NCBI GenBank assembly: GCA_016839555.1 | Contig: JAEOUA010000001.1 | Location: 246,043-310,042, forward strand | Direction of reading: 5' to 3' | Source: Promethearchaeota archaeon | Lineage (GTDB): Archaea > Asgardarchaeota > Lokiarchaeia > Sigyniarchaeales > SOKP01 | DNA: 64,000 nucleotides | Shown here: piece after piece, positions 4,483-61,623 of the stretch | How the letters are laid out: each line of letters opens with the position of its first letter | How positions within the stretch are numbered: position 1 is the first letter of the stretch | The notes under the pieces: generated by a model | Databases searched by the model: none | Told to the model about the DNA's origin: nothing | The model's input: only the letters and a program-made list of their open reading frames with translations | Position numbers and translations under genes: made by a program

Positions 4483-4483
4483 A

Positions 4484-4740
4484 CATTACAATTTTTTATT
4501 AATTTTATCGAGGCTAATAGTTGCTTTATAATCAGAAAGAGTAGAATCGAAAGAAAATCTGGCAGACGATAATAATTTTATTACATTTTTTTTAATCTTT
4601 TCTGAATACTCTGAATTAAGGAACTAACTACAGGGGAAATCAAAAACATAATAAAATGAATTAGTTTTTGAAGTTGGTTTTTTAGACACGAATTTTCCAA
4701 CGGTTTATGAACAAATGCTTCAAAAAGAGAAAATTTTTCT
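4484..4740 (-). pseudogene. Degenerate duplicate of the 3' end of gene 5566..6870
   Basis: 4501-4740 aligns without gaps to 5581-5820 (offset 1080 bp); contains an in-frame stop (TGG to TAG). Confidence 0.85.
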
Positions 4741-4758
4741 ATCTAAGTTCTTTTCAAG

Positions 4759-5562
4759 ATGATATTAATATATTTTAATAAATATTATAAAAATATCAAT
4801 ATGAAATCAGAAGTATATAAAAATATCAACAATATTAAGCTCCGAATGCGGATATTTGAGTCTAAAGATAGCGTATCAGAAGATTTAAAAGGAGCACTCA
4901 TATTTCTCCAAGGATCTGGAGGTGCACAATTTTTTCCTCAATGCAAGTACTTTGCAAAGAGAGGTATGGTAACTCTTACAGCACAATTTCGTGTGCCAAT
5001 CAGACATAAGAAATTTTGGCCATATTTTGAGAGTATTTCTGATGGAAAATCTGCCATTCGCTATATTAGAAGTAATGCTTCGAGATTTAATATTGATCCA
5101 AATAAAATTGCTGTTTCTGGTGCCTCTCAAGGCTCAATTTACGCATTAGGGTCCGCCTTAATCAAAGGTTTAGAATCTAAGGGTGAAGATCTTAATATTA
5201 GTTCAGAACCGAATGCTTTAATATTACTCAGTACGCCAATTCCATATTGGAAATTTATTATTGATTACATTCATAAACGAAGACCCAATGAAATAACCCC
5301 TATACATCACATTAAAGAAGAACTCCCTCCTACAATTCTCATTCATTCTATCGAAGATGCTATCGAAGATGTTAAGAAATTTACACGGAAAATGAAAGAT
5401 TTAGGTGATGATTGCGAATTATTTTCATTCGAAGGTAAAGAACATGGATTTATCAAGCGTGGAAGGTCTGATGATGGGAAGTATGACAATAACCCTTATG
5501 AAAAATCACTCGTTATAATAGATAAATTCCTTTCAAGATTAGGTTATCTTATTGTGGCGTAG
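4759..5562 (+). CDS. Alpha/beta hydrolase (esterase-like); probable start at 4801
   Basis: GASQG nucleophile elbow, IDPNKIAVSG, PPTILIHS.ED, HGF. Confidence 0.85.
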   Translation: MILIYFNKYYKNINMKSEVYKNINNIKLRMRIFESKDSVSEDLKGALIFLQGSGGAQFFPQCKYFAKRGMVTLTAQFRVPIRHKKFWPYFESISDGKSAIRYIRSNASRFNIDPNKIAVSGASQGSIYALGSALIKGLESKGEDLNISSEPNALILLSTPIPYWKFIIDYIHKRRPNEITPIHHIKEELPPTILIHSIEDAIEDVKKFTRKMKDLGDDCELFSFEGKEHGFIKRGRSDDGKYDNNPYEKSLVIIDKFLSRLGYLIVA

Positions 5563-5565
5563 ATA

Positions 5566-6870
5566 CTAAAATTTTTTTTTAATTTTATCAAAACTAATAT
5601 CCACTATATAATCAGAAAGAGTAGAATCAAAAGAAAATGTAGCAGAGGATAATACTTTTATCACATTTCTTTTAATCTTTTCTATATAATCTGAATTAAA
5701 GAACCAACTACGAGGGAAATCGAAAACATAATAAAATAAATTAAATTTAGAATTAGGATTCTTAGATAAAAATTTTCCAACAATCTGAGAACAAGCGCTC
5801 CAGAAAGAAAAAATATCACCTTGAACTAAAGTAGATTCATTTACAGGCTCTCGGCGAAACTCTTTCATAGATAAAATCATCATCAACGGCAAAGTGTATT
5901 TAAATTGAATTCTGGGGTGTTCATCTCCTAAAGAACTTTGAAATTGTTTCCAATCCGTTCCAATAAGAGCAAGACCTTCCTCAATTTTTGAATAATAAAA
6001 ATTTTCCGTTAAATATGGTTTCACAGTAATAAATTGAAAAATTCTTAAGGAGCATGCGATCCTCCATTTTAAATTCTGAGTATCTAATTGGAATAAAGAT
6101 TTTTCAAGATATTTCTTCTGTGATTCTTCTTTTTTAACTTTGAAGCAATGTGTAAATACCTCAGTTAAATTTGCACATATTTCATCATAATAATAGAAAT
6201 AATGATCATAAATCTGGGAGTAATTATATCCCCATATATCAACGAACGTAAAGACTTTTAATGTTTTAAATAAGATTTGAATATGATAATCAGAAATTGG
6301 TTTATTATCATCTTTTAAATCAGAATAGAGCGCGATACTTCCATAATAACTGCTCTCTCCCGTAAAAATTGTACCGATTAGTAAATGATGCTTAATTGAG
6401 ATTAAGATCAATTTTTTAATAATTTTAGAGAGATTAAAGCGGTCTAAAAAGTGGTGTTCTCTGATAAGTTTTTCTGATTCAATAGTATGCCACGTTCTAT
6501 TAAAGGGACGACTAAGATCATGATATAATAAAATAAGTGGAAAATAAAGAGGCTGGAATTCATATAATTCTTCCAATTGATTTCTTAAAATTATTATATT
6601 ATTTTTATTGATGTCTTTTTCAAATTGATTATTGATGATTGAAAAATAGTTATAAAGAGCGTGAAAAGTATGTCGTAAAGTTCTAAATGCCTCATATTTA
6701 TCTTGCTCTATCCCTTTTATCACAAAATCAAACCATTTTGGGAAGAGAATAGAGAGCTGTTTCACCTCTTCTGAATTAATTAGATCCGTCTCTGATATTT
6801 GCCAAATATTTAAGTTAGATTCTATAAAAATCTTTTCTAGTTTCTGATAGTAATTTTTTTCTAATTCCAT
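5566..6870 (-). CDS. Hypothetical protein with an HD-like domain
   Basis: RHTFHAL...LLYHDL...WH...KHHL...D pattern resembles HD phosphohydrolase domains. Confidence 0.55.
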   Translation of the reverse strand: MELEKNYYQKLEKIFIESNLNIWQISETDLINSEEVKQLSILFPKWFDFVIKGIEQDKYEAFRTLRHTFHALYNYFSIINNQFEKDINKNNIIILRNQLEELYEFQPLYFPLILLYHDLSRPFNRTWHTIESEKLIREHHFLDRFNLSKIIKKLILISIKHHLLIGTIFTGESSYYGSIALYSDLKDDNKPISDYHIQILFKTLKVFTFVDIWGYNYSQIYDHYFYYYDEICANLTEVFTHCFKVKKEESQKKYLEKSLFQLDTQNLKWRIACSLRIFQFITVKPYLTENFYYSKIEEGLALIGTDWKQFQSSLGDEHPRIQFKYTLPLMMILSMKEFRREPVNESTLVQGDIFSFWSACSQIVGKFLSKNPNSKFNLFYYVFDFPRSWFFNSDYIEKIKRNVIKVLSSATFSFDSTLSDYIVDISFDKIKKKF

Positions 6871-6885
6871 TATAAGCGTTTTAAA

Positions 6886-8118
6886 TTATAAAAAAATCCA
6901 TAAAAAAACTCCAACAATTATTCCTATAATTATAAGGAAAAAAACCCCTGCCCAAGAAAACAAGAAATTTCTTACATAATTAATTTTAAAATCTACCGCT
7001 TCATAAGGGCACAATTCAGCACAACAATAACAAAATATACATTTCTTTCTTTCCCAACTTGGAGTATTACCCTTCTTGATTATTTCTGGTGGAGTGATCG
7101 CATTACCAGGACAATTTTCCCAACAAGTAGAGCAAAGCCTGCATTTATTTGGATCAAATTTTATCGTAGCTCTGAACACCACATTTCCCATATAATCTGC
7201 TAACCATGATGGTAAAGGTACAGATACTGGATGCTTCCTTGGTATTTTAAATTTGCGAGAAACATCTTTTAAATTTTCCCCTAAGAATTGAATTTCCGAG
7301 ATATCAGAAGTCCCAAGATTTTTTTCTACTGCTTTCTCAATATATTTAACTTTTTGTGGATCGAGCCCAATAATTTTACATACAGCGGTATCTAAGGCCA
7401 CACCATCAAATCCCGCTATAATTAAATCCAACTTAACTATCTCTCCCTTGCTGGGACCTTTTCCTTCTTGACATAAATACCCATCAATTACAGTTAATTG
7501 TGGATTTGATACAGAATAAATATCGGCTAAAGCTGCAGAAAATGCATCTAAGGTTGAAAATCTCGCATGTGTTTTTGCTTTATTTCCCAAAATTAAAGTC
7601 CCAAACATATTTTTTATGCAGCAGGTTAATAATGTTTGCCAGTGGGTCTTTATTTTCGGAATATTGATAATTAAATCAGCTTCTTTTAATAATGGAGAAG
7701 AGACAAATTGCTCGAGGACTAAGGGATTTTTGACATCATATTTTATACGTTCTGTTTTTTCAAATGGAGTCCAATTTACATTTTCTTCTTGACATATCTT
7801 TTTTATTCCGCTCCCTTCAAATGCTTTTTCAGTAACTCCTGGTGATGATGTACCGCTTGATTCAGCAACGATAATATCATTCTGGTTATGATGCTTTATC
7901 CATTTTATCACCGCCCTAACTATTTCTGGATGAGTTGTTACTGCCCGCTCTGGCTCTTTACTCTTCAAAATATTAGGTTTAATTACAATCTTCATAGCAT
8001 TTTTATTAAATAATGATTCTGCATTTATTAAATCAAGAGCCTCAAAGACTGCACGTTCAATCTCATTGTTTTTAATCTTCACAATCGAGATCTTATTGTT
8101 TTTCATGGGAAAGTTCAC
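6886..8118 (-). CDS. DUF362 protein with two 4Fe-4S motifs and a C-terminal membrane anchor
   Basis: IKPN, TTHPE, PKIKTH, KNMFG; two CxxCxxCxxxCP motifs; hydrophobic C-terminus. Confidence 0.85.
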   Translation of the reverse strand: MNFPMKNNKISIVKIKNNEIERAVFEALDLINAESLFNKNAMKIVIKPNILKSKEPERAVTTHPEIVRAVIKWIKHHNQNDIIVAESSGTSSPGVTEKAFEGSGIKKICQEENVNWTPFEKTERIKYDVKNPLVLEQFVSSPLLKEADLIINIPKIKTHWQTLLTCCIKNMFGTLILGNKAKTHARFSTLDAFSAALADIYSVSNPQLTVIDGYLCQEGKGPSKGEIVKLDLIIAGFDGVALDTAVCKIIGLDPQKVKYIEKAVEKNLGTSDISEIQFLGENLKDVSRKFKIPRKHPVSVPLPSWLADYMGNVVFRATIKFDPNKCRLCSTCWENCPGNAITPPEIIKKGNTPSWERKKCIFCYCCAELCPYEAVDFKINYVRNFLFSWAGVFFLIIIGIIVGVFLWIFL

Positions 8119-30061: not shown

Positions 30062-30514
30062 TTATATCAAAATATTCTTTCTATTACTATTCAAGGTTTT
30101 AATAAATGTATTTATCTCAGAATTGAAATCTTCCCATATTGTTGGTAAATTTTCTGCGAGTGGAATTAATTTTTCTTTTTCTAATTTAACGCCATAACCA
30201 TGAGTAAAAAAGTGGCGAAATGCGAGATATTCATTTAATTTATTTGAGAGTTCTTTACTAATTATATTTTTATCAACGGATAAATCTAATAAATCTTTAT
30301 GCCAAGATTTTGAGGAAGGAATAGATATCCCTTTAAATTTTAAAATTCTTTTAAGAGAATTTTCTATACCACTATATGTATTTTGGAGAAATGTAGCGAT
30401 AGCTGCTAATTCTATGATGGTCATTTCCCTCCGTTTCATTGCTTCTTCTAAAGCATCAAGAGTTGTTTCCATTTGCTCTTTTTCAGCTTCTATTTCATTG
30501 ATAAATCTATCCAT
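30062..30514 (-). CDS. HEPN-domain toxin (HepT-like)
   Basis: RHFFTHGY (Rx4H) motif; overlaps the MNT gene. Confidence 0.85.
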   Translation of the reverse strand: MDRFINEIEAEKEQMETTLDALEEAMKRREMTIIELAAIATFLQNTYSGIENSLKRILKFKGISIPSSKSWHKDLLDLSVDKNIISKELSNKLNEYLAFRHFFTHGYGVKLEKEKLIPLAENLPTIWEDFNSEINTFIKTLNSNRKNILI

Positions 30515-46230: not shown

Positions 46231-49200
46231 TTGGTAATTCCATTAAGTTGGGATTGTTGCTATCTATATATTCTTTTTATTAACCGATGCTCCGTAATTG
46301 CCTCGGTAGCATCGCAGAACCCTCTAGTAGGAATGGGATTATATACCATGCTACATATCGTTCGGGGATTGGATCAGACCATGCAACAACAAGAGCTTTT
46401 AAAGAGTGCTTTCCACTCGTCCTTGTATATGGGAGAAATTCCCCTCTCAAGAAAACTTCCCGGTGATCAATACGACATTTGGGAGGAACTCAGCCTCCAA
46501 CTGCCCACCCACTGGAACAATATCCCAGCTCTCAAAACAGTTTACGCGCCCGTGCAAAGTATCTCAGAATATTTCACCTACAATGGCTATATCGTTACCT
46601 CAAAAGGCTTCACAACTGCCACTAAAGGCTTCAATATCTATACGGGCGTTTTGGATATTGAAGGGGATACTTCAGAACATCTCTCGATCGAGCTAAATGA
46701 ATTTTTAACATTATACTTATTAAATACTAAGCTATATCCTACTAATAATATTCCCTACTTAGAGCAAATTGCTTGGCGTTTATCCAAAACTGATCCCTCC
46801 TTGGAGCACCCCTTCGATAGGATTGTACCTCAGTTCATTTCAGGCGCCCCCAGCTTCGTGTTCGCTTCGTCTGAAGGATCATTGGTATTACCCGACTTCT
46901 ACGAGGAATATCCCCTCATGGGTCGCGTTTCCACAACCATAGATCCAAATTATTGGATCTATAAGGGTATAGGAATTTACTCTACATATACCGATGATCA
47001 ACTCGATGCACTGCGAATCTTTCGGCTCATTCCAGAAGATTCCATTCATCCCCTTAAATCCAATATTGCTTGCATTGAAGTTCGCCTTAATCTTTATGAG
47101 GAAGACAAAAGCCCGTTAATAATGACCCTATTTCCTCAAGATTATTCCTATGATCCAAGCACTAGACAGGTCACTATTAATAAAAACGTATTTGAGAGGA
47201 TAAAAAGCATTATAAGAGATTGTTTTGAGCCTTATAGTGGGCAAGAAAAGAGGGGATATTTTGAGTATAAGATCAATATAGAAACGGGACGCTCTATTTA
47301 TGATCCCAACGACGATCTTTCGGATGCTCAAGCGCAGAAGATCGCCCTCATGCAAGCCGTGCAGCTTTACATGCTTCAATATTATAACGAGTTTACACAG
47401 GGTGCCGCCCGCGCGCAAATCGACTTCGAGACGGTCTATACCGTGACCCTCACCACCATCAGCACCGCAATTACCCTAGCTGTCGGTATTGCCGCTTCCT
47501 CTGCATTTGCGGCTGAAGAGGTTATAAGTTCAAGTATTCAACAAGTAGTTCCCGCAGCGACTCGGGGTAGTCTCATTGCTGCTCAAGTCGTTCTTTCGGT
47601 CGCCTCTGAAAATCTAGAAGAGCTCTTCTTGGATCCCCTCATCGAGAGCGTCGTCACGGACTTAGTGAAAGACCTCGGTGGCGATGAGAAGGCACAAGTA
47701 ATTGCAAGTGTCCTCGCAGAATCCATCAGAGAAGGGTTAATGGGTACGGTTGCTGACTTCTCCCATATTAACATTATGAATAATCTTCAAAATCTGGTAT
47801 TTAACCACTATCAAGAGGCAATCATGTCCACCGCATCCGAACTTGCAACCCTGCACGCCTTCAGTGAATATCAACAACTCCTTGCCGAGCAACCAGGCTA
47901 CACCCTCGGGCCCATCCCGCTGTCCGCATTATCCACCTTGACTCTCTTTATCCCCTCTATGATAGCTGAATCCTTCTATATTCGGCAAGATGCCACTTCG
48001 GGCGAGGTGTTACACTTTCTCAGGGGGCTCACCGACTTCGGCATCAAAGGAGACTTCCTCAGATCCATCATACGAAATATGCATACCGCCGACAGCACCG
48101 CAGAAATAATCGGAACGCAGGAGATCGCCCCCGGCATCACCGCAGAGGTGTCTAATCCTGTCCTGCTCGCTCTTAAAAACGTCCTCGAAGATATTGCCTC
48201 TTCCCGATTAGCCTCCATACAAGATAAGAAGCCGTGCTCGCAGGAAGATATCAATGTTCTTAGAGAACAGTTTCTATCGGGAGAGATTGGTATAGAATTC
48301 ACCTTCATGTATGATGGCGGCGGAATTGATTATGGAGGAGATATGGGGATTCCTTTTGGAATAGATTTGCAAAATAACAAAAGAATTAAAAAGGTAAATA
48401 CACAGTCCCAGACCCATGAAAAAACCATGATAACATCAATTTTCAATTATCAAAAAACCTTAGATGAATGGTTGGGAGAGAATAATCATATTGAAGAAAT
48501 ACTACTGAGGAATTTAGAAGAAATAGCTAAGAGTAAAACAACTAATGATCAAAAAAAACATTATGCATTGTTAGTTGAAGGTTTTGATTCAAGATTCTCG
48601 TTGAAAGTGGCGAAAAGAATAGAGATTGATGAGCTTGCCTCAATTTTTGAACAGCAAGATGGTCCAAAATTTAAAGAATTCTTTGAGGTATTAAATCAAA
48701 TGCAAAATCCATTTGGAGCAAGAGTAGAAGAATTTATTCAAAAAAGAGATGAGAGCGGTAAGAAGCTCAGGTATAAAGATGCAAGACTTTTCATGGATGA
48801 TACTTTACTGGAAAGCATTAAAGAAGATATTCTTCAAAACCTTATACGAGCCACAGGAAAAAGCAAATACTTTTTTGAGGAGATAAATCCAAAAACGTTT
48901 GAGAAATTTGTCAAATATTACCAAGAAAATGATAAAGAATTTTATGAGAATTACTTACAAGAAGGCTTTTCTGATATGCTATTAAAGTATTTTGTCAATT
49001 TTGAAGTCCCTTTTCTTATCTGGTCTCAATATTTAGAACAGGATCAGACCAAATTAACGGAGTTAAAAGATTTTTATATGCAAAATTGGGATAAGGATGC
49101 TAAAAATTTGCAGAGAATTATTTGGGGGGTGCTGTTAGACTGCTATCATCCCCTCTTAGGTCAAAAGATTAAGATTGCCGATTGGGTTTCCTTAGACCTC

Positions 49201-49569
49201 CATCATTGGATGACCGCCTCCGGACACGAAAATAAATATTCTTGTCTACTTTTTTCGGTATTCCCTCTTCCTAGCGACCTTCGACTTGGAGAACCAATCC
49301 ATCTTCAATTAACGGGGCAAATAGAAAATAATCCCACAATAATGGGTACCCATTGGGAAAATCAAATAAGTGATGTGATTACAGCAGTTCTTAAGGGAGA
49401 TGTTCCATCCTCTACCATCTGGAAAGATGAAGAATATAATCAAAAATTTGATCAATACCAAAAATTGAATGAGAATGCAAGAAAAACAATAATTTGGTTA
49501 TTTTTATACTCTCATAGTGATTTAATAATAAGATTTAATCTAGAAAAAATAGATTTCTATTTTAAATAG
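46231..49569 (+). CDS. Putative polymorphic toxin: GC-rich N-region with hydrophobic helices, junction motif, then HNH-like (HHW) tip; true start uncertain
   Basis: KVNTQSQTHEKT at about aa 721; tip DCYHPLLG...LHHW...HENKY is homologous to 52938..54356; followed by an LRR gene. Confidence 0.7.
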   Translation: MVIPLSWDCCYLYILFINRCSVIASVASQNPLVGMGLYTMLHIVRGLDQTMQQQELLKSAFHSSLYMGEIPLSRKLPGDQYDIWEELSLQLPTHWNNIPALKTVYAPVQSISEYFTYNGYIVTSKGFTTATKGFNIYTGVLDIEGDTSEHLSIELNEFLTLYLLNTKLYPTNNIPYLEQIAWRLSKTDPSLEHPFDRIVPQFISGAPSFVFASSEGSLVLPDFYEEYPLMGRVSTTIDPNYWIYKGIGIYSTYTDDQLDALRIFRLIPEDSIHPLKSNIACIEVRLNLYEEDKSPLIMTLFPQDYSYDPSTRQVTINKNVFERIKSIIRDCFEPYSGQEKRGYFEYKINIETGRSIYDPNDDLSDAQAQKIALMQAVQLYMLQYYNEFTQGAARAQIDFETVYTVTLTTISTAITLAVGIAASSAFAAEEVISSSIQQVVPAATRGSLIAAQVVLSVASENLEELFLDPLIESVVTDLVKDLGGDEKAQVIASVLAESIREGLMGTVADFSHINIMNNLQNLVFNHYQEAIMSTASELATLHAFSEYQQLLAEQPGYTLGPIPLSALSTLTLFIPSMIAESFYIRQDATSGEVLHFLRGLTDFGIKGDFLRSIIRNMHTADSTAEIIGTQEIAPGITAEVSNPVLLALKNVLEDIASSRLASIQDKKPCSQEDINVLREQFLSGEIGIEFTFMYDGGGIDYGGDMGIPFGIDLQNNKRIKKVNTQSQTHEKTMITSIFNYQKTLDEWLGENNHIEEILLRNLEEIAKSKTTNDQKKHYALLVEGFDSRFSLKVAKRIEIDELASIFEQQDGPKFKEFFEVLNQMQNPFGARVEEFIQKRDESGKKLRYKDARLFMDDTLLESIKEDILQNLIRATGKSKYFFEEINPKTFEKFVKYYQENDKEFYENYLQEGFSDMLLKYFVNFEVPFLIWSQYLEQDQTKLTELKDFYMQNWDKDAKNLQRIIWGVLLDCYHPLLGQKIKIADWVSLDLHHWMTASGHENKYSCLLFSVFPLPSDLRLGEPIHLQLTGQIENNPTIMGTHWENQISDVITAVLKGDVPSSTIWKDEEYNQKFDQYQKLNENARKTIIWLFLYSHSDLIIRFNLEKIDFYFK
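48389..48428 (+). repeat. Junction repeat J1 (aaaaggtaaatacacagtcccagacccatgaaaaaaccat)
   Basis: Read directly; identical to the reverse complement of 59536-59575. Confidence 0.95.
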
Positions 49570-49607: not shown

Positions 49608-50465
49608 ATGAATGAAAATAGATATATTAAATTGAAAAAAGATGGTGTTCTTGAAGAAGAAATTCAAGTTATTAAATTACTTGAAAAGGATGTTGAGAAT
49701 CCAATTTATATAAAAAACATTCAAAATCATAGAATTACGAGTATATCTATGAATGAGTGTGGAATAAGTCAAATTTCCTCTAAGATAAAAAATTTAAGAA
49801 ATTTAGAATATTTATTTATAAGTGAGCCTAAACTTAAAAAAATTCCAGATACAATAGAACATCTAACTAAACTAAATCAATTAAGAATAAATAAAAGCTT
49901 GATTCAAGAATTACCTATTTCTTTAAAAAATTTAACCAATCTAAAAGAAATAGGGATAGCTAGAAGTAGATTAAAAAACTTTCCAAATCAAATATGTAGA
50001 ATAAAGGGATTAGAAGCAATTTCTTTAAGTGGAAATCAAATTACATCACTTCCACAATGTATTAGACAGTTAACACAATTAAAAGGATTAATAATGGATA
50101 ATAATAAGTTAAAAAAACTTCCCGATTCTATTTGTCAGCTCAAAAACCTCCGAACTTTATCGTTAAAGAATAACCAATTAGAAGAATTACCTAAAGATAT
50201 TGGCAATCTAATGATGGGGCATAAGATAGAGTTAGGTAATAACAAATTACACTCTTTACCAGATTCCTTCAAACATCTCGGAGAATTACTATCTATTAAA
50301 CTAAATGATAATCTATTTGAAGAAGTCCCACCCGTTTTAGAGGAAATGAAAATATTTTCTCTTGACCTATCGGGAAATCCTATTAAAACGTTCCCTAAAG
50401 AGATTGGAAATATCTCCTTGATTGACGAGAAAGGGCTCTATATGGTGCAGGAAGATAAAATTTAA
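49608..50465 (+). CDS. Leucine-rich repeat protein, putative immunity protein
   Basis: Tandem LxxLxLxxNxLxxLP repeats; directly downstream of an HHW tip. Confidence 0.85.
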   Translation: MNENRYIKLKKDGVLEEEIQVIKLLEKDVENPIYIKNIQNHRITSISMNECGISQISSKIKNLRNLEYLFISEPKLKKIPDTIEHLTKLNQLRINKSLIQELPISLKNLTNLKEIGIARSRLKNFPNQICRIKGLEAISLSGNQITSLPQCIRQLTQLKGLIMDNNKLKKLPDSICQLKNLRTLSLKNNQLEELPKDIGNLMMGHKIELGNNKLHSLPDSFKHLGELLSIKLNDNLFEEVPPVLEEMKIFSLDLSGNPIKTFPKEIGNISLIDEKGLYMVQEDKI

Positions 50466-52035: not shown

Positions 52036-52872
52036 TTATTTTTTATATTTATAGATTCCTTTTTTTATTGCTTTTGCTTTTCCAACCTTTCTAGGAAATT
52101 TTTTAATGGGATTACCAAAAATATATAAGTAAGCAAATTGATGCTTTTTTAAATGGTCAGGGAATTCGGTTAACTTATTATTACTCACATCTAACCCCAT
52201 TAAAAATTTTATATTTGAGAAAGACTCTGGTATGGATTTTAAAAGGTTGTTACTTAGATTAATTTCAAGAAGATTATTCATATCACCAAAATTCTTAGGT
52301 AGGTGAGTTAATTGATTAAATGAAAGTGAAAGTCTCTTTAACTTTTTTAGATTACACAATGAATCTGGAAGGGTTTTTATTTGATTTTTTTGAATATAAA
52401 ATATTTCTAAATCCTTTAAGTTTTCAATACATTCAGGAAGATTCCTAATTTGATTGCTACCTAAATGTAATGAATTCAAATTTTCAAGCTGACAGATCTC
52501 CTCAGGGAATTTTTCTAAATTACTACTACCAATAACAACCTCATATAATTTTCCTAAATTTTCAAAAGTTTGAGGAATATTCTTTATAGAACTCTTATAT
52601 ATAGAAAATCTTCTCAAATTTGAAAGATTTCCTATAGTAGTAGGTAAGGATGTTAGGAATTCATCACTTATTGTTAAATATTCTAATTTCTTAAGATTAT
52701 CAATATTCTCAGGAATATTCTTTATTCCCGAATCAAAAGCATCTATTCTAATTATTCGATTATCCTCGTTTACATCAATAAAAACATTCTTTATGATTTT
52801 AGCTTCTAAATCATCTATAAACTCTCTTTCATTAGAAAGAAGCTCACTTATATCTTCTATTTGTCTTGTCAA
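52036..52872 (-). CDS. Leucine-rich repeat protein, putative immunity protein (paralogue of 49608)
   Basis: LRR array; shares LEYL.IS, FP..IC, LPDS.C.LK.L and GNPIK.FP with 49608..50465. Confidence 0.85.
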   Translation of the reverse strand: MTRQIEDISELLSNEREFIDDLEAKIIKNVFIDVNEDNRIIRIDAFDSGIKNIPENIDNLKKLEYLTISDEFLTSLPTTIGNLSNLRRFSIYKSSIKNIPQTFENLGKLYEVVIGSSNLEKFPEEICQLENLNSLHLGSNQIRNLPECIENLKDLEIFYIQKNQIKTLPDSLCNLKKLKRLSLSFNQLTHLPKNFGDMNNLLEINLSNNLLKSIPESFSNIKFLMGLDVSNNKLTEFPDHLKKHQFAYLYIFGNPIKKFPRKVGKAKAIKKGIYKYKK

Positions 52873-52937: not shown

Positions 52938-54356
52938 CTATGTTAGTAATAATTTAATCATTTCAAATATTTTTCTATTTTGTCTAAAATATCTCTCAAA
53001 CATATCTTTATTTTCCAAATTCCAATATTCTGGTGCATTTCCCTCAAGAACACTTGCTATAATTTCCATAAATTCCTGATCAAATAATGCCGCTAATCTA
53101 CGAGAATTCCGAATATGTTGTGTCATAAAATTATGCCCAATATCTCCGCTAATCTCTCCTGTTATAGGATCTTCAAACTGAGAGTTTCCCTCTGCGGGAA
53201 TAGCAATTAATGAGATAAAATTGTTCATATACTTGTTTTCATGTCCATAAAAAGTTTTCCAATGATGAAGAGGAAATCGTAGCCAATCTTTTAAGTCTAT
53301 TTTTTCTCCTGTAAATGGATGCTGGCAATCAAATACGACAGCCCAAAAGAATCTTTGGAATAACTGGGCAGATTCGTCATTTTTCCATCTTGCATAATGT
53401 TTTTTTGAAACTCTCTCACTTGTGGAGACTTCTGCTATATATTCTAGAAACATCAATTCATAATCCACAAAATAATCTAATAATGCTTCATAGAAAGAGT
53501 TTCCATTAATGTATTTCTCCTTAAATTTTGGCAGAGTTTCTCTTAAATTCTTATAAGTAGTACCTTTCAAATCATCATTAGTCAAAGATTTAAGTTCTTC
53601 AAGGATACTTGATCCAATGTCATTTAGCTCATTCTTATCTAATTTCATAAGAGACTCAATCTTGTTGGTAATATATTGGCGGACATTGATATTTTGCTCT
53701 TTAGGATGAGCAATGCCTAAGCGTAAGGCAAATATTGACTCTTCACTAAGCTCATATAACTGAAATAATTCTCTTAATTGAGCAAGAGAAGCTAATTCAT
53801 ATCCATTTATGAATAAACCATAATCTTGTGGTTTCCCAAATTTGACATTAAATTCTGAAAACGCATTCTGAACGATTTCCGCTATGCTTGTGGTAGATGT
53901 AATTTTTATTGGTCTTCTATCTATTTTTCCATAAGTATTAGGATTTCCAATGAAGCGCTCAATCGTGATTTCTTCGACTCTTTCAGCTGGTTTAGTGCCC
54001 CATAAATACCAACGGGAAGCTAAAGTATACCCCAATTCTTCTAAAGCACTCCTAACAGCACTAATTGAATCTAACTTCCAAATATCTCCGTTTTCGTCAA
54101 AAATATATTTTTTATCAATAGGTAAAAAATCATATAAAACTTCTACAATTTCTTTAGTAAATTTAATAGGTTTGTTTTTATCTAAGTTTTGATTAGGATT
54201 AATTTCACTATATTCCAATCCCATTATATCTTGGATGATTTGAATAGTTCGTGTATCAATAGATTCTTGATCAGATTTCATTATTGCTTTGATTTTTTCG
54301 ACAATGGTTTTTTCATGGGCCTCGGACTGTGTATTTAACTTTTTGAAGCAGAACAC
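52938..54356 (-). CDS. Orphan toxin cassette: junction motif, ubiquitin-like domain, HNH-like (HHW) tip
   Basis: Begins KLNTQSEAHEKT; tip DCQHPFTGEKI...LHHW...HENKY; followed by an LRR gene. Confidence 0.7.
   Translation of the reverse strand: MFCFKKLNTQSEAHEKTIVEKIKAIMKSDQESIDTRTIQIIQDIMGLEYSEINPNQNLDKNKPIKFTKEIVEVLYDFLPIDKKYIFDENGDIWKLDSISAVRSALEELGYTLASRWYLWGTKPAERVEEITIERFIGNPNTYGKIDRRPIKITSTTSIAEIVQNAFSEFNVKFGKPQDYGLFINGYELASLAQLRELFQLYELSEESIFALRLGIAHPKEQNINVRQYITNKIESLMKLDKNELNDIGSSILEELKSLTNDDLKGTTYKNLRETLPKFKEKYINGNSFYEALLDYFVDYELMFLEYIAEVSTSERVSKKHYARWKNDESAQLFQRFFWAVVFDCQHPFTGEKIDLKDWLRFPLHHWKTFYGHENKYMNNFISLIAIPAEGNSQFEDPITGEISGDIGHNFMTQHIRNSRRLAALFDQEFMEIIASVLEGNAPEYWNLENKDMFERYFRQNRKIFEMIKLLLT
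54304..54343 (-). repeat. Junction repeat J2 (inverted; 37/40 identical to J1)
   Basis: Reverse complement aaaagttaaatacacagtccgaggcccatgaaaaaaccat. Confidence 0.93.
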
Positions 54357-54463
54357 ACGAAATTTCGGACAAAATACAAATTACACCAGAGCTAATCTAA
54401 GATATGTATAAAAAGAGAGAAAATTAAATACTAGGAGTTAATTATATATAATAAGGAAGAAAA

Positions 54464-54697
54464 ATGAAAACTGAAACATTTGATAAGAAGCAAAAAGAAG
54501 AACACCTCACTGATTTGAAAATAGAAGAACCTAAGGAGCTTTATATCTATACCAAAACTACTGACGATTTAATTTTAAAATCAAAAGCAGAGATGGATAT
54601 GTTAATTGAGAAGTTAAAAAATACGAAGTACGACAAACAATTGGCAGACTTTTATTCTACATATTCACATGAGTTTGAAGATCAAACGGATCTCTAA
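54464..54697 (+). CDS. Small hypothetical protein
   Basis: 77-aa ORF with purine-rich sequence upstream. Confidence 0.5.
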   Translation: MKTETFDKKQKEEHLTDLKIEEPKELYIYTKTTDDLILKSKAEMDMLIEKLKNTKYDKQLADFYSTYSHEFEDQTDL

Positions 54698-55011
54698 TAT
54701 GTTCTTAAATTATGTGTTTCAAATTTACAGAAATCGAACTATAATTCCATAGTATTTTTCTTTACAAGGATATTATTTATTAATTCTTAAAGATTTTCCA
54801 ACCTTAAAGCATTATTTATGAAATCAAATCCAATTCTTTAATAGAAATGGGCTAGTCTTTCAAAAATCATATAGAATCAACGATTAAATTTTAATAAAAA
54901 GTTATTAAAATTATCTAAAAATTATTTTTTTATAAATATCCCCTGTTTTTTTATAATTACAATTATATACTAGTAGTACCTTTTGTTATTTGAAGGAAGG
55001 AGAATAATTTT

Positions 55012-55242: not shown

Positions 55243-55785
55243 ATGGAAATGATTGTTATTTCTGATACTGCCCCAATCATCTTTTTTGGAAAGGTCAATA
55301 AGCTAAATCTTCTAAAAGATCTTTATCAAACAATTTATTTACCAATTGAGGTTTGGGCAGAATTAATATATCCATTAACACAAAATGATGATGATATTCC
55401 TGAAGACATTAATTTGGAATTAGAAGCTAAAGAAAAAGGTTGGATAATTGTAAAAAATCCAGAGAAAGAGGAATCACTTGAATTAGCATTAAATCTTTCC
55501 CATGATTTAGGCTTAGGGGAGTCGTATGCAATTGCTCTAAGTGTTGAGCTTAATGCTGATTTACTTTTAATTAATGACAAAAAAGCAAGAGATGTAGCAA
55601 TCAATTTAGGAATCAAAACAAAATGGACAACTGAAGTTCTTGTTGATGCGGTGTCTAAAAATTTTATTACAGATTTTGAAGATTTTAAGCAAATATTTAA
55701 TGACATGATAGAGAATGGTTTATGGATTGAAAAAGATTATTATAAGAAACTAATAAAAGATGTTGAAAATAAGTTTTATAAATAA
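55243..55785 (+). CDS. DUF3368/VapC-like PIN toxin
   Basis: ISDTAPII, V..E, LGLGES.AI.L, LLINDKKAR. Confidence 0.85.
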   Translation: MEMIVISDTAPIIFFGKVNKLNLLKDLYQTIYLPIEVWAELIYPLTQNDDDIPEDINLELEAKEKGWIIVKNPEKEESLELALNLSHDLGLGESYAIALSVELNADLLLINDKKARDVAINLGIKTKWTTEVLVDAVSKNFITDFEDFKQIFNDMIENGLWIEKDYYKKLIKDVENKFYK

Positions 55786-56205: not shown

Positions 56206-56514
56206 TTATGTTAATCCTTTTTTTTCTAATAAGCGTCTTTTAAAATGTCTATCTTTTCTATTAAGCTCTTTTCTGAATTCTCTATTTTTTTGCTTAAATA
56301 ATCTTTCTCGTTCCATAGCATATTCATCACGTGTATAATAAATGTTAGTTTTGAGTCTAGAAAATAATTGTTTATCTTTTTGACTAATTGAAGAATCATA
56401 TAATTTACTTGAAATCTTTTCTAAATCTGCTAATAGAGATTCAATCGTTTTGATCTTTGCTGTAAGTTTTTCTACTATTTCTTCTCTATTGTCAATATTC
56501 TCGCTATTTTCCAT
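56206..56514 (-). CDS. Coiled-coil hypothetical protein
   Basis: Charged heptad pattern. Confidence 0.55.
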   Translation of the reverse strand: MENSENIDNREEIVEKLTAKIKTIESLLADLEKISSKLYDSSISQKDKQLFSRLKTNIYYTRDEYAMERERLFKQKNREFRKELNRKDRHFKRRLLEKKGLT

Positions 56515-56587: not shown

Positions 56588-57262
56588 TTAAATTTCTCTT
56601 TGTGCTCTCTCATCTTTGCGTTTCATAACACTTTCTCGATATGTTACTCTCGAATCATCCAAATCTTTAAGCTTTATATCAATATAATTAATATATTTTC
56701 CCTTTATAGCTAGAGAATTACGAATTACTTCCAGACTCGCTATTAATCTATATATTGAAGGACACTTCCCTTTATAAGTTTTCTCCTCATCTGTATCATA
56801 TATTTTAATCGTACAGAGAAAATCGAAAGAACCTGTAAATATTCTTGGTAAATTAACTAATCTATTAATATCCTTTATTTCTTCAAGAATAATTCTATAA
56901 TATTCTTCTAAAGACAATTCCGAATTTATTTGAAAATCGCTGGGGAATCTAATAAGCAAATTAATATTATTTATTTTAAGATCCTTATATTTTGCATACA
57001 TTCTTATATATTGTAGTTCAGTAATGAGTTTGTAAAATGATGTACAAGAAAATTGAAAAGTATAATCGGAGCTGCTTCCCTTTAATTTAGAACTGAAAAT
57101 ACCTAATAATTTTCTATTTAAATGGATAATATAAAAATCTTCTGGAGTCTTTTTATCAAATGAAATATCTAACAAACCAGTCACTTTACCCTTAAATATT
57201 TTGCGATTCTTTTTTAATTCGTTTATTTCCTCAATTTCTTGTCTATAATTTTTTGGTTCCAT
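56588..57262 (-). CDS. Hypothetical protein with an internal duplication
   Basis: CTSFYKLITELQYIR versus CPSIYRLIASLEVIR. Confidence 0.6.
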   Translation of the reverse strand: MEPKNYRQEIEEINELKKNRKIFKGKVTGLLDISFDKKTPEDFYIIHLNRKLLGIFSSKLKGSSSDYTFQFSCTSFYKLITELQYIRMYAKYKDLKINNINLLIRFPSDFQINSELSLEEYYRIILEEIKDINRLVNLPRIFTGSFDFLCTIKIYDTDEEKTYKGKCPSIYRLIASLEVIRNSLAIKGKYINYIDIKLKDLDDSRVTYRESVMKRKDERAQREI

Positions 57263-57282: not shown

Positions 57283-57753
57283 TTATTTTTCATTAATCGG
57301 AAGCCAAGCTATTAAATCTAATCCCGCGGCTTGAAAAATTATCTCATCCCCTTTATTTATTTCAATACCTTGTCTTTCGAAATCGCTTTGTGTTATTAAA
57401 AAGATCATTCCATCATATTCAATAGCAAATTTCTCTTTCTTTAATTTAAAACCATTACATTGGTTCCACTTTTCAGGTATATTGTATTTTCCTAGATATT
57501 TTGCTTTTATAATTGGATTTTTTATATTTTCTTTATCATTATATTTATTTATCGAATTTATTTTATTCATATAAGAGATCCAAATCAAAAGATCAACTAT
57601 TTTTCCAATATAAGCTCTAAGATCAAAAGGTTTTTCATCCCTAATCCAAACCAATCTCTCATTTTCAAGTTTCGCTAAGATCGAAAAGCTAAAAATTTTA
57701 TCCTCATAGGGATCATAACCACTCCTTTCTATTTCTATAATTTTAACTTTCAT
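57283..57753 (-). CDS. Putative immunity protein, family I (C-terminal GD.I.F...LDL.AW)
   Basis: Paralogue of 58154 and 61635; its ATG overlaps the stop codon of the upstream orphan tip. Confidence 0.7.
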   Translation of the reverse strand: MKVKIIEIERSGYDPYEDKIFSFSILAKLENERLVWIRDEKPFDLRAYIGKIVDLLIWISYMNKINSINKYNDKENIKNPIIKAKYLGKYNIPEKWNQCNGFKLKKEKFAIEYDGMIFLITQSDFERQGIEINKGDEIIFQAAGLDLIAWLPINEK

Positions 57754-58157
57754 ACTTCTTTAATACCTAAATATCGAATTTTTTGGTATAAATTTTCAAT
57801 TTCATCAATAAAATATAGTCTTAATTCAATAATATTTCCTTTTTCATTAATTTTTATTCCTAAATATTCAATGGTATCTAAATGTTTAAATCTGTATACT
57901 TGAAATCCCAATTCATCATCTAGTACAAAGTAATTATCTTTAATAATCTTATATGCAAACTCAGCAACTTGATATGGCTTTTTTATATTCCATTTCTCAA
58001 AATCAATCTTATATTTTTGGAATGAATGAATGAATCCAAATCCCTTTTCTACTCCATATATTAATAAATATGGATTATTATACCCCTCTCTAGTAGTAAA
58101 GATGACTTCTCGATAGTCCTTGCAGCTTAAAAATTTGAATAAGAATAAATATTTTAT
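57750..58157 (-). pseudogene. Start-less orphan toxin tip (RNase-like class), 135 codons; not in the ORF track
   Basis: Manual translation ...EKGFGFIHSFQKYKIDFEKWNIKKPYQVAEFAYKIIKDNY...YLGIKINEKGNII...KEV*, homologous to the tips of 58602 and 60001. Confidence 0.75.
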
Positions 58158-58594
58158 TCAAGAGGACGCCAAGCAATTAAATCAAGTCGACCCTCAGAAA
58201 AGGTAATTATATCTCCATCATTTAAGTCTTTTGGCGTTTTCAAAAAATCTAATAATATGATCCCATTTACCGTTTGAACAGCAGGATAAGTTTTTGATAT
58301 TTGTCTTTTATCATAGTTCCACCAGCTCTCAGGAATTTGATAATTTTCTATAAACCTACCAGTAAAAATTGGTTTCGATCTGTCATGTCCTTTAGTAAAA
58401 TCAACCGAATTTATATTTATAGTACCAAGGGCGAGTATTAAGCAATCAATTATTGTATTAATTTTAATATTGGGATTGAAATGATCAAATAATTCTACTT
58501 CCATTCCATTATCTAATTGTGCTATAATTAAATAATCGCTTTTTTGATCCATATATACTGTACTAGGCCATAAATCTTTAATAAATGCTCTCAA
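58154..58594 (-). CDS. Putative immunity protein, family I
   Basis: Ends GDIITFSEGRLDLIAWRPLE; starts 8 bp after the toxin cassette stop. Confidence 0.7.
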   Translation of the reverse strand: MRAFIKDLWPSTVYMDQKSDYLIIAQLDNGMEVELFDHFNPNIKINTIIDCLILALGTININSVDFTKGHDRSKPIFTGRFIENYQIPESWWNYDKRQISKTYPAVQTVNGIILLDFLKTPKDLNDGDIITFSEGRLDLIAWRPLE

Positions 58595-58601
58595 TATTTG
58601 C

Positions 58602-59744
58602 TCACTCCTTTTTTATTTTGTTTTGTCCAAATCGGTGTGCCGTTATAATGAATCCATTAGTTCCTATTCCAATTAATAGATATTGTACCTCTTCCTTAAT
58701 TCTCAATTCATAGAGGTAAGTATGTCCTTGTTCAATCGTGAATTTATAATCAATCTCTTCTTGTGTCTCTAAAATTTCTAAGATATTGTCTATTCTTTTT
58801 TGAGGAGTATTCCAATCAACACCCCAATCTTCAAATTGATTTTCATAATGTTTTCCATCAATTTTCAGCATTCCTACCCCTTTATCTTCAATAGAATCAT
58901 AATAACCCAACTCAATCCACATTACTTGTTTTGTACCATGTTTTCTTATAACTCCAAGGACTTCATCAATATTAAATTTAACTGGCATCTCATGAATAAC
59001 ATTTTTTCCAGCATCATCCATTTTCTGTATAATCTTTCCTTCAATATCCTTAAGCATCTGTAAACGCTCATCTGTAGCATATGTATCTGATTTCCATTTA
59101 TCAATACTTGGATTATTTGGCATCCCAAATGCTTCTCTTGCAGTAATTTTTCCTTGTTTCACAAGCTCCATCAATCGTAATGTTTTCTTTTTTGATAAGC
59201 ATACCTTTCCAATGATATCATTCTTGGAAACAAGTTCACTATCAACCTTCTGATTGGTGTCGGGATTCAACCCTATGGTGATAAAAAATTCGTTCCCTTT
59301 AGCGTCAAAAATGTGATTTTCAATCATGTGAATTATAATCGTCCCATCACTCCGTTTAAAAACGATAATGTCTCCTATGTTATATCTGGTAAATCTCCTT
59401 ACTTTCTTAGCCCCTACAATTTCACCATCATAGAATAATTGATTCATTGAAGGACCCTTATATATAAACGCTTCATAGTTTCTTTGTAATCTTGAATCGG
59501 TTATTTTTTGGAAAATTACTTTAATTTTCTCAACGATGGTTTTTTCATGGGTCTGGGACTGTGTATTTACCTTTTCAAGACCCGATTGCGGGGGCTCAAG
59601 CCTCCAGTAGCTTATCCCAAGAATAGTCTTAATCCCATAAATACATTCAAGCTCATTATAGAGGTAATCCTTGGAGAATAAACCCTTGCTGCGGATGCTA
59701 AATAGTCTATGAGAGTGGATTGTTTGTGAATTGGGACATTGACT
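58602..59744 (-). CDS. Orphan toxin cassette: junction motif, S26 signal-peptidase-like domain, RNase-like tip (open frame extends upstream of ATG 59447)
   Basis: Frame is open from 59744: ...LEKVNTQSQTHEKTIVEKIK...YKGPSMNQLFYDGEIV...GDIIVFK...IIHMI...; tip KGVGMLKIDGKH..QFEDWG...GFIITAH. Confidence 0.7.
   Translation of the reverse strand, partial: SQCPNSQTIHSHRLFSIRSKGLFSKDYLYNELECIYGIKTILGISYWRLEPPQSGLEKVNTQSQTHEKTIVEKIKVIFQKITDSRLQRNYEAFIYKGPSMNQLFYDGEIVGAKKVRRFTRYNIGDIIVFKRSDGTIIIHMIENHIFDAKGNEFFITIGLNPDTNQKVDSELVSKNDIIGKVCLSKKKTLRLMELVKQGKITAREAFGMPNNPSIDKWKSDTYATDERLQMLKDIEGKIIQKMDDAGKNVIHEMPVKFNIDEVLGVIRKHGTKQVMWIELGYYDSIEDKGVGMLKIDGKHYENQFEDWGVDWNTPQKRIDNILEILETQEEIDYKFTIEQGHTYLYELRIKEEVQYLLIGIGTNGFIITAHRFGQNKIKKE
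59536..59575 (-). repeat. Junction repeat J3 (inverted; 40/40 identical to J1)
   Basis: atggttttttcatgggtctgggactgtgtatttacctttt on the + strand. Confidence 0.95.
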
Positions 59745-60000
59745 TCACCAGCCGTCTGCAGCTATTAAGGTCGTGATTCCAGGCTTCGGCTCAATAGATA
59801 TTTGAGGAGAGATGATGCTCGCGAGTCTCTGGGATATTTCTAAGCTTAGCAAGGATTCGGAAAGCTCTTTTAAATATATCACGATAATAATTCTCTTCCC
59901 TAATATTTTCTATTCTCTAAACCTTTTTTATTCCATTTGCTAAGCGGAGCTCCTACTCAATTAGGAGCTTCCTTCGAATAAGAACAAATACGCCCTAAAG

Positions 60001-61623
60001 ATGGGAATTAAAAAAGGAAAAGCGACAATGGAGCGATCAATAATACTAAAGAAGAATATAATGGTAAATACACAGTTCGAGACCGATGAAAAAACCACTA
60101 AAGAAAAAATTAAGGATTTTATTAATAAAGATAAGATAAAGAATTTCTTGAAATATGCAATTCCAATAGGCACGGCAGCAACATTATCTGTAGTTCTTCC
60201 TTATGTGGGTGCACCCATGTTATTAGCTCAAGCGGTTAGTTTAGCTACTTCAACATTAGGTATAACCCTTATATATAAAAATGCCAAAATAGATTCTCGT
60301 AATAGTAAACATTTAACACTTTCGCAATATAAAAAAAATAATATTGATGAAATATCAAATTGCTATAAAGGAGATTATTTAAAATATATTAAAGAAGTTG
60401 ATTTGGCTTTTAGTACAATTAACATGAAATCAAAAGAATTGAGAAATTATCTCAAGAACCCTGATTTTTATGGAATAATCTATGAAATATATAATAGAAA
60501 AACAGGATTCATACACATTGAAAAAAGTAGGATCAAGGAATCCCCATCAGCTCATTTGACTCGATTAAAAAATGAAATTAGACAAAAAGAAAAAGAGGGA
60601 GTTAGATTAACACCTTTTGAAAGAGATTTCATAAATAATCCAGGAAATTATGAAATAAGACGTCTTCAATTATGTTTTAATAAAGAACAATATGAATATA
60701 ATGAAATATTTTGGAAATTAATTAACAATGCTAGATTGGGCGGAGTAGGTTATGACCTTGGAATAAATGGTTGGTATGACACCTCAATCTTGAATAGAGA
60801 ATATAATGGTGTCTCGGAAACGGATTTAACACTTGATATATTGAGCGGAATGAGTGAAAGAGCATTAAGAAGAAAATATGGCTCTGAAGACCTTACTGCA
60901 ATGTTAATGGAGTTTTATGACGTTGGAAACCTAGAAGAAGCTCAAAAATTGTTTATTCAACCTATTATAAAGAAATTAGTAGAACGATTTTATGGTATTC
61001 AAAAAGCTTTAGATGTTTTAAAGGAACATAATATTAATTTTGCTCCTAGTGAATTCTGGCTTAATGATTTTTGTAAGAAAATCTATGGTAAAACCTATAA
61101 TCAACTCTTAGATGAATTAAGTCCGATATATGAAAGATATATGGGTGATCAAAAGGGTAGATTAGTGGATCTAAAGATTTATTTAAGAGAAAAAGGAGTT
61201 GAGCTTTCTTGTGATGATAATGAAATCAAGGCTATCATTAAAGGACCTAAAATAGAGGGATGTGATTTATATTATATAACCCTAGGGCATCAGAATTATG
61301 AAAAAGGACAAGAGACTGATGGATTTGGAATTGAACATTGGGTTTATAAACATTTAACTATAAAACAATTTATAGGGGAAGGAATACAAAATCCAGAAGA
61401 ACTGGTTAATTTTGCATTGAAGACACTAGATAATAATTATAATTATAAATATAAAATTCGAGATAATGGTAGAATATCGATACTATATCTAGTAGAAAAT
61501 AATATAGGTAACCCTTACTTTATTAAATTTATTATTTCAGAAGATAGAGGATTAATTACCGCAATTCATATGACTTATAATGAAGGGAGAAATGAATATA
61601 ATAATCCCGAATTAATAACATGA
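60001..61623 (+). CDS. Toxin cassette: junction motif, hydrophobic segment, GIY-YIG-like domain, RNase-like tip
   Basis: VNTQFETDEKT; YGIIYEIYNRKTGFIHI...E.FW...GYD; tip DGFGIEHWVYKH...F...GI.NP...RGLITAIH. Confidence 0.68.
   Translation: MGIKKGKATMERSIILKKNIMVNTQFETDEKTTKEKIKDFINKDKIKNFLKYAIPIGTAATLSVVLPYVGAPMLLAQAVSLATSTLGITLIYKNAKIDSRNSKHLTLSQYKKNNIDEISNCYKGDYLKYIKEVDLAFSTINMKSKELRNYLKNPDFYGIIYEIYNRKTGFIHIEKSRIKESPSAHLTRLKNEIRQKEKEGVRLTPFERDFINNPGNYEIRRLQLCFNKEQYEYNEIFWKLINNARLGGVGYDLGINGWYDTSILNREYNGVSETDLTLDILSGMSERALRRKYGSEDLTAMLMEFYDVGNLEEAQKLFIQPIIKKLVERFYGIQKALDVLKEHNINFAPSEFWLNDFCKKIYGKTYNQLLDELSPIYERYMGDQKGRLVDLKIYLREKGVELSCDDNEIKAIIKGPKIEGCDLYYITLGHQNYEKGQETDGFGIEHWVYKHLTIKQFIGEGIQNPEELVNFALKTLDNNYNYKYKIRDNGRISILYLVENNIGNPYFIKFIISEDRGLITAIHMTYNEGRNEYNNPELIT
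60063..60098 (+). repeat. Junction repeat J4 (direct; 32/36 identical to J1)
   Basis: ggtaaatacacagttcgagaccgatgaaaaaaccac. Confidence 0.88.

Follow-up and report, generated by a model that had tools for sequence, protein, structure and literature searches.

Why would a toxin cassette carry a domain that looks like a signal peptidase? The question is raised by a 64,000-nucleotide (nt) stretch of DNA from a Promethearchaeota archaeon (GenBank assembly GCA_016839555.1, contig JAEOUA010000001.1), which forms the last 64 kb of a 310-kb contig and is referred to below as the window. The initial annotation had noticed a signal peptidase (S26/Sec11)-like domain here and had placed it inside a toxin cassette. 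The element concerned, cassette B (58602..59570, minus strand), has 322 codons plus a stop and joins a junction, an S26-like module, and a toxin tip; its head reads AAG GTA AAT. Polymorphic toxins are well mapped in bacteria and have rarely been described in archaea. With moderate confidence, based on sequence comparison and structural modeling, we propose that the module functions as a peptidase that would cut its own chain after an (A/V)-x-(G/A) motif (A147-F148-G149|M150 in this copy) and so free the toxin tip, and that cassette B would be a spare copy expressed only after recombination at the junction. Residues are numbered from the junction Val (residue 1), the protein being encoded by 58605-59570 on the minus strand.

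The open reading frame (ORF) listed for this locus begins with an ATG and encodes 281 amino acids (aa) (58602..59447, minus strand); the same protein is the window's own record, P0001. In the minus-strand translation, the cassette B frame is open for 99 codons upstream of this ATG, up to a TGA at 59745-59747, and the residues that the initial annotation had quoted after extending the frame upstream are indeed all encoded in this frame (the minus-strand translation of 58602-59900 contains AFIYKGPSMNQLFYDGEIVGAKKVRRFTRYNIGDIIVFKRSDGTIIIHMIENHIFDAKGNEFFITIGLNPDTNQKVDSELVSKNDIIGKV). Between that TGA and the ATG at 59447, the translation and the ORF list contain no in-frame ATG, GTG, or TTG. We read the TGA at 59745 as a stop because the genes of the window do not become longer in general under genetic code table 4. 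All copies of the junction contain the string CATGAAAAAACC, and a start by frameshift from its out-of-frame ATG was considered and dropped, as the string is internal coding sequence in the main toxin gene of the locus (see below).

Three observations point to present or recent coding of the 41 codons that precede the annotated ATG. Database protein P0002 aligns with the module from residue 13, i.e., through codons upstream of this ATG. Cassette B and a second cassette of the locus, cassette A, show five consecutive synonymous third-position differences across TIVEKIK.I. Among the listed positions (59159-59532) that vary in related metagenome contigs, 13 of 23 are third codon positions, as are 6 of the 8 at or above 59448; these rows, with at least 23 variant positions, may stem from contigs of other organisms and are hence a weak hint.

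The putative nucleophile, Ser41 (GPSM; codon 59448-59450, minus strand), lies directly 5' of the annotated ATG (59445-59447). His81 (IIHM; codon 59328-59330, minus strand) aligns with the general-base position of endoplasmic reticulum (ER)/archaeal-type enzymes, and Asp110 (..NQKVD; codon 59241-59243, minus strand) aligns with the conserved Asp past the GDN box. When the module is compared with the canonical signal peptidase of the same genome, Ser41-Met42, His81, Gly100-Leu101-Asn102, and Asp110 align with SPSM, VHR, GDN, and ..PD, respectively; Ser41-Met42 also aligns with SGSM of SEC11, and His81 aligns with VHR of SEC11. As in ER/archaeal-type enzymes, the base position is occupied by His and not by Lys, and the Ser-Lys dyad of Peptidase S24 (LexA/UmuD) is absent. 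The S26B pattern described in the initial annotation thus holds for the Ser, the His, and the later Asp. Two of its elements are altered: IxHR is IIHM here (Arg lost), and TKGDN is TIGLN (Asp lost, Asn kept).

We searched 1.84 billion representatives by HMMER with the 322-aa junction-to-stop frame as the query and obtained 70 proteins at E ≤ 1e-3. Local rescoring found the module in 64 of 71 retained proteins, while the other 7 matched the tip alone. Relatives that lack the Asp of the GDN box were classed as toxin type (49 rows, the window's own included), as opposed to 16 canonical-looking ones; this sorting is rough, since P0050 and P0055 keep GDN yet otherwise look toxin type and P0063 looks anchored. 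The toxin-type relatives keep the triad and lack membrane anchors. Ser is present in all 33 toxin-type rows that cover the site and is followed by Met in 29 of them, His81 is kept in 48 of 48 rows, and Asn102 and Asp110 are each kept in 48 of 49. Of the remaining rows, 14 have the Met next to the Ser as their first residue and 2 start later. The 14 records whose annotated start is this Met, like that of cassette B, are P0004, P0011, P0013, P0016, P0019, P0027, P0030, P0034, P0036, P0039, P0041, P0049, P0065, and P0074. Judging by their sequences, these calls are probably a recurrent gene-calling artifact on start-less cassettes, one that hides the active site.

Is the module truly related to signal peptidases? 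The NCBIfam model of archaeal signal peptidase I, TIGR02228, matched a 380-aa frame at E = 1.2e-11 (44.7 bits) and the 175-aa module at E = 1.8e-12 (47.4 bits), with SipW and bacterial signal peptidase I models next. With the same model, the membrane-anchored signal peptidase of this genome (contig C5; 205 aa, with hydrophobic segments at its two ends) scored 51.4 bits, or 55.4 bits with neighboring stretches included. The S26 assignment made in the initial annotation is confirmed, since the similarity to TIGR02228 far exceeds what chance would give. The Pfam matches are weak: Peptidase_S24 (PF00717) matched cassette B at only E = 0.026 (14.7 bits, versus a threshold of 23.3) and no Pfam S26 match was found for the cassette B sequence. 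Among 56 aligned family members, 13 of them canonical, 54 matched TIGR02228 and 51 matched SipW. The profile of this alignment matched human SEC11C (E = 2.4e-16) and SEC11A (E = 3.5e-14) with the Ser, the His, and GDNN..D aligned, a match that was aided by the 13 canonical rows.

Structural modeling points in the same direction. The AlphaFold2 model of residues 1 to 175 (mean predicted local distance difference test [pLDDT] score of 90.2; predicted template modeling score of 0.80) was compared with 48,161 chains, and the ten best matches were all S24/S26 proteins (Z = 9.7 to 7.2). SipA (Z = 9.7; 90 residues with a root mean square deviation of 2.8) and SEC11C (Z = 9.3; 130 residues) were followed by LepB, lambda cI, and LexA (Z = 8.8 each) and UmuD' (Z = 8.2), whereas Tudor and BAH barrels trailed from Z = 6.2 downward. 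Foldseek ranked SpsB, LexA, and SEC11A/C at the top, yet with E values of 1.6e-3 and weaker, and a single-sequence search of solved structures with the module returned nothing meaningful (best E = 0.36). By profiles and model, the S26B-like catalytic core would span residues 32 to 126 (59193..59477, minus strand). It is preceded by a long charged helix, predicted for residues 2 to 31 (59478..59567, minus strand), at the place where canonical enzymes have their membrane anchor. Neither the sequence nor the model has a hydrophobic anchor at either side of the module, versus both ends in the genome's own enzyme. On these profile and model grounds, we consider the identification of the module as a divergent, anchor-less S26B offshoot to be firm. 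In function, it is probably not a signal peptidase.

The placement of the domain inside a toxin cassette is supported by a main toxin gene, a repeated junction, spare cassettes, a tip resembling CdiA-CT, and paralogous downstream genes. When the sequence 5' of the ORF was used as a query against the genome, it revealed a junction repeat of about 40 to 60 nt (KVNTQSQTHEKT; KK-VNTQSQTHEKT as protein) with four copies in 14 kb. The copy in cassette B (59536..59578, minus strand) is 98% identical over 43 nt to 48386-48428 in the main polymorphic toxin gene (46231..49569, plus strand; 1112 aa as listed, its true start being uncertain). The junction of the main gene lies at residue ~717. It is preceded by a long N-terminal part that contains hydrophobic stretches and in which no Pfam family was found, and it is followed by a tip of ~385 aa ('HHW..GHENKY'). 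Three spare cassettes carry the junction at or near their heads, and there is a truncated tip remnant in addition. Cassette A (52938..54356, minus strand; junction at 54283-54343) has an 'HHW' tip homologous to that of the main gene and is followed by a leucine-rich repeat (LRR) gene (52036..52872). Cassette C (60001..61623, plus strand; junction at 60062) ends with a tip like that of cassette B (designated CT-B) and is followed by an immunity-like gene (61635..62069). Cassettes A and B are on the strand opposite the main gene.

The junction codon is AAG in cassettes A and B and in the internal copy of the main gene, and cassette C reads ATG GTA AAT at this point. Since cassette B has no start and carries AAG at its junction, it is most simply seen as a silent spare module, the displaced 3' part of a toxin gene whose own start is missing. 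As it stands, cassette B is probably not expressed, as a start codon upstream of the Ser is missing.

How does the module sit in complete toxins? The relatives share an order consisting of an N-terminal region (N-region) of ~450 to 720 aa with hydrophobic segments, a KVN[ST][EQ]S junction, an optional module, and a variable tip, with a presumed immunity gene downstream. The module was found deep inside long proteins, namely, P0023 (1135 aa, module at 657-778), P0046 (860 aa), P0067 (810 aa), and P0022 (723 aa, cut), and P0023 and the main gene have homologous N-terminal parts (E = 1e-18). P0075 (1031 aa) combines an N-region, KVNSES, the module, ..GAFG|L.., and an 'HHW' tip like the main gene's, and an LRR gene comes next. 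A pattern scan with a narrowed alignment and one genome per species gave 21 pattern matches, 6 of which were confirmed as loci, all 6 in Promethearchaeota archaeon metagenome-assembled genomes; one of these loci encodes P0075. In a 201-genome sample of the phylum, 9 genomes matched at E ≤ 1e-8. Seven of them (the window's own genome included) were among the 41 genomes of the window's family, and the two outside this family have anchored-looking enzymes.

The open frames around the genome matches reach 1036 and 1283 aa. The 1283-aa frame (L021) comprises an N-region, KVNSAS, the module, ..EGLG|M.., and a CT-B-like tip, which is the order expected of a fusion between the main gene and cassette B. 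Other cassettes in relatives have their start at or just before the junction, and one type of N-region is combined with different tips. Wherever a relative is long enough for this to be judged, the module lies between the junction and the variable tip; it is never the last domain. By these sequence criteria, the module family is part of a polymorphic toxin family of Promethearchaeota (Asgard archaea).

What could a peptidase do at this position? Conservation in the relatives stops some 25 residues beyond the catalytic core, at an (A/V)-x-(G/A)|M motif. In the model, a helix (127-138) and a strand (144-148) lead to A147-F148-G149 (59124..59192, minus strand), and model confidence is 96 over residues 141 to 150 before dropping to 70 and then 56. 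Among the toxin-type rows, residue 147 (P3) is Ala in 32, Val in 10, Ile in 2, and Thr in 1 of 45, residue 149 (P1) is Gly in 30, Ala in 11, Arg in 1, and Leu in 1 of 43, and 28 of 43 rows have Met at residue 150 (P1'). The column entropy is 1.1 to 1.2 bits at positions 147 and 149 and ~3 bits or more from position 151 on. Type I signal peptidases cut after a small residue at −1, with a small or aliphatic residue at −3. As (A/V)-x-(G/A) fits this rule, we propose self-cleavage after Gly149 (codon 59124-59126).

In the proposed mechanism, the soluble S26B-type module, with its Ser-His-Asp triad between junction and tip, would act as a peptidase and cleave in cis after Gly149, ahead of Met150, and cleavage would release the variable toxin tip. 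Cassette B would remain silent until recombination at the shared junction copies joined it to the N-terminal part of the main gene. As these copies are inverted, such an event would flip ~11 kb, and the resulting toxin would have ~1040 aa and the architecture seen in the relatives. The suggestion of the initial annotation that the domain may serve as the release protease of the toxin tip is therefore plausible, and it appears better grounded now by position, triad, and boundary motif. A more far-reaching version, which we offer as tentative and rather doubtful, is that this would be a soluble, single-turnover Sec11-type release module with its own A-x-G|M site. It would then be the first cis-autoprotease of the S26 family and a new class of releasing peptidase, with tip switching through inversion or gene conversion at the 40-nt junction with silent inverted cassettes.

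Several points weigh against self-release. This copy has no start codon, and translation from the ATG at 59447 would yield a product without the nucleophile. The Asp of the GDN box is Leu in cassette B and V/L/I/M/T/F/E across the 49 toxin-type rows, mostly as G[VLIM]N. Both TIGR02228 scores of the module (44.7 and 47.4 bits) are under the curated equivalog cutoff of 51.85 bits, and the module is therefore a relative and not an equivalog. Within the model, strand 144-148 may be just part of the fold, and the small residues at P3 and P1 could be kept for packing alone. The junction motif (V-N-S/S-E-S) would suit a −3/−1 site equally well. The 'HHW' tip occurs without the module in the main gene and cassette A and with the module in P0075. 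As the same tip family is found in both forms, release cannot depend on the module in general, and the sequences argue that the module is optional and not the general release mechanism of these toxins. Recombination, too, left no sign in the Logan contigs of four DNA runs (two studies), which end at the junction repeat (at 48418 and 59546) and so are silent on inversion either way. These contigs contain a single joint that "goes back" (59573 to 48387); its shorter side is 35 letters long, and the joint falls inside the repeat.

Some of these points would suit an active peptidase that is not a self-release device and that instead acts in trans, on the export route of the producer or on target-cell proteins, or cuts upstream at the junction motif. 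The conserved triad demands activity but not cis cleavage, the junction KVN[ST][EQ]S has small residues at the −3/−1 spacing, and the module is optional for the same tip family. We nevertheless consider this explanation unlikely. The module is never the last domain, and a variable tip follows it wherever this can be judged; cassettes that lack the module conserve the junction just as well, and the junction is predicted to be helical; and the tightly conserved motif falls exactly where conservation ends.

Still less probable is that the 281-aa protein made from the ATG at 59447 is the real product, a nucleophile-less S26 fold serving as a scaffold or adaptor for the tip, as in noncatalytic homologues. 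The absence of any in-frame start between the upstream stop and 59447 would fit, as would the 14 of 49 toxin-type database proteins called from the same Met and the finding that SipA, a signal peptidase homologue with a nonpeptidase role, is the best structural match. However, relatives and paralogues share the protein sequence of the 41 upstream codons, invariant Ser included, and these codons begin exactly at a junction 98% identical to that of the main gene. Moreover, gene callers must take the first Met on a start-less cassette, and the 14 calls more likely reflect the same artifact. An ordinary housekeeping signal peptidase paralogue that adjoins toxin genes by chance would explain why the best family matches are signal peptidase I models, but it is highly improbable, considering the lack of a hydrophobic anchor on either side (compared with the genome's own enzyme), the in-frame fusion to a CdiA-CT-like tip, the embedding in 810- to 1283-aa toxins of relatives, and the score below the curated cutoff. 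Self-release of the tip by an active module is the reading that we prefer.

The tip that self-release would set free, CT-B (58605..59123, minus strand), has as its last ~120 residues (58605-58964) a domain homologous to a CdiA-CT toxin, with the BECR RNase fold. A profile of CT-B and ten relatives matched PDB entry 7m5f chain C, 'Toxin CdiA' (E = 3.8e-10), with the motifs G-L-x-H-I..H..QF and NG[FY][IV] aligned. The CT-B model (pLDDT of 78.5) also matched 7m5f_C (Foldseek E = 6.6e-6; Z = 13.1, with 117 of 119 residues aligned), and further matches were other CdiA-CT domains, colicin D, BrnT, MqsR, and RelE (Z = 6.6 to 4.3). Profile and model thus identify CT-B as a homologue of a bacterial CdiA-CT RNase-fold toxin. 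In CT-B of cassette B and in the relatives closest to it (P0007), Lys replaces the first His of G-L-x-H-I..H (58605-59093), and judging by sequence, this tip may be a variant or a weakened enzyme.

Directly 3' of cassette B is a candidate immunity gene of 146 aa (58154..58594, minus strand), for which no Pfam family was found and whose product had 14 database matches at E ≤ 0.001, the window's own included. A 156-aa paralogue (57283..57753, minus strand; 32% identity, E = 1e-10) lies farther downstream, and another is the immunity-like gene after cassette C mentioned above. Between the 146-aa gene and the 156-aa paralogue sits an open frame of 135 codons (57753..58157, minus strand), the truncated remnant of a CT-B-like toxin (E = 5.9e-9 against a tip profile from which this frame was left out). 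Paralogous small genes hence come after each CT-B-like tip and LRR genes after each 'HHW' tip, and binding of the tip is their candidate role; docking of the CT-B tip with the 146-aa protein scored 0.01, versus a mark of 0.32. In P0003, a 247-aa metagenome protein, no stop separates the end of a CT-B-like tip from an immunity-like protein, the two being fused as one.

The second tip family, '..HHW..G[HQ]..NKY' (46231-49569 and 52938-54356 in the window; 3997-7092 in locus L014), has no Pfam family and is followed by an LRR gene each time. The LRR protein gene 3' of the main tip (49608..50465, plus strand) is a candidate immunity gene, and by position the LRR proteins would be the immunity partners of the 'HHW' tips.

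Upstream of cassette B, between the divergent cassettes B and C, is a G+C-rich stretch (59579..59900, no strand assigned; up to 44% G+C versus ~27% in the genome) that is in frame with cassette B except for one TGA. It has no detectable relatives and no other copy in the genome; marginal matches of 25 to 56 nt were seen in 4 of 41 other genomes of the family. An RNA gene was considered for this stretch and rejected: there is no tRNA, no Rfam match reached the gathering score (rows at E up to 10 were at chance level), and fold z-scores of −0.38, 0.66, and 0.12 indicate no unusual fold energy. Two minus-strand genes without a family match follow the cassette B array (56588-57262, 224 aa; 56206-56514, 102 aa). 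PIN-domain (weak Pfam match) and HepT-like genes near the locus (55243-55785 and 54400-54700; 30062-30514) suggest small toxin-antitoxin pairs. Elsewhere in the genome, which matches the archaeal small-subunit rRNA model and not the bacterial one, the archaeal model matched contig C5 (603237-603905) in three pieces that cover model positions 4 to 658 alone, and this gene may be interrupted, masked, or partly assembled.

If our reading is correct, a conserved, anchor-less Sec11/SipW relative in Promethearchaeota toxins would be a new processing module for polymorphic toxin systems. The closest prokaryotic relatives of eukaryotes would then wage contact-dependent or secreted warfare with a CdiA-CT-like RNase tip, and work on how ER-type signal peptidases function would gain a small, soluble S26B enzyme that carries its own substrate. 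The data also flag what is probably a recurring annotation problem, in which spare cassettes are called from the Met after the catalytic Ser and the active site stays hidden.

The proposed module can be set beside several known systems. With the S26B signal peptidases (MEROPS S26B; TIGR02228; human SEC11A/C, PDB entries 7p2p and 7p2q), it shares homologous sequence (E = 1e-12) and fold (Z = 9.3 over 130 residues), and the Ser in its SM motif, the His base, and the Asp past the GDN box all align. Unlike these enzymes, it is anchor-less and has a charged helix instead, most members have G[VLIM]N for GDN, an extra helix, strand, and A-x-G|M motif are added, and it is fused inside toxins and does not stand alone. 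The self-cleaving S24 proteins LexA, UmuD, and lambda cI have the same superfold (Z = 8.8 to 7.2) and are likewise self-cutting at a site of small residues. Their catalysis relies on a Ser-Lys dyad, and their Ala-Gly site is N-terminal to the core, whereas the module has His at the base position and its candidate site is C-terminal, and Pfam S24 matches it at only E = 0.026.

At the level of the locus, CdiA/Rhs systems with orphan CT-immunity modules are similar in having a short conserved junction, variable tips, and displaced, start-less tip and immunity modules downstream, and the CdiA-CT homology (7m5f_C) adds to the likeness. The Promethearchaeota locus differs in its Asgard host, in the opposite orientation of two spare cassettes and the main gene, and in an unrelated N-region without a Pfam family. 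SipA of Streptococcus pyogenes (PDB entry 4n31), the best structural match, is likewise a case of the S26 fold recruited to a new task; its catalytic residues are presumably missing. SipA is described as a signal peptidase homologue that acts as a pilus assembly factor in a nonpeptidase role (PMC4049620), whereas the module family keeps the full triad.

We found no report of an S26-type release peptidase in polymorphic toxins in the full-text literature searched, which left out the 2019 mBio survey of archaeal polymorphic toxins, a source possibly relevant to novelty, and found no paper there that treats Asgard archaea together with both an immunity protein and a toxin domain. In the searched text of the 2012 survey of bacterial polymorphic toxins, the releasing peptidases named are HINT, ZU5, PrsW, caspase-like, and MCF1-SHE domains (Zhang et al. 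2012, PMC3482391), and that text contains none of the terms "signal peptidase," "S26," "S24," and "LexA." As far as that text goes, the module has the same place between trafficking part or junction and tip, the same optional and sporadic occurrence, and the same setting of loci with spare cassettes and immunity genes, and it differs in fold, in catalytic type, and in its archaeal hosts. By this analogy, the module would work like the bacterial releasing peptidases while belonging to a different peptidase family, and we regard this mechanism as plausible.

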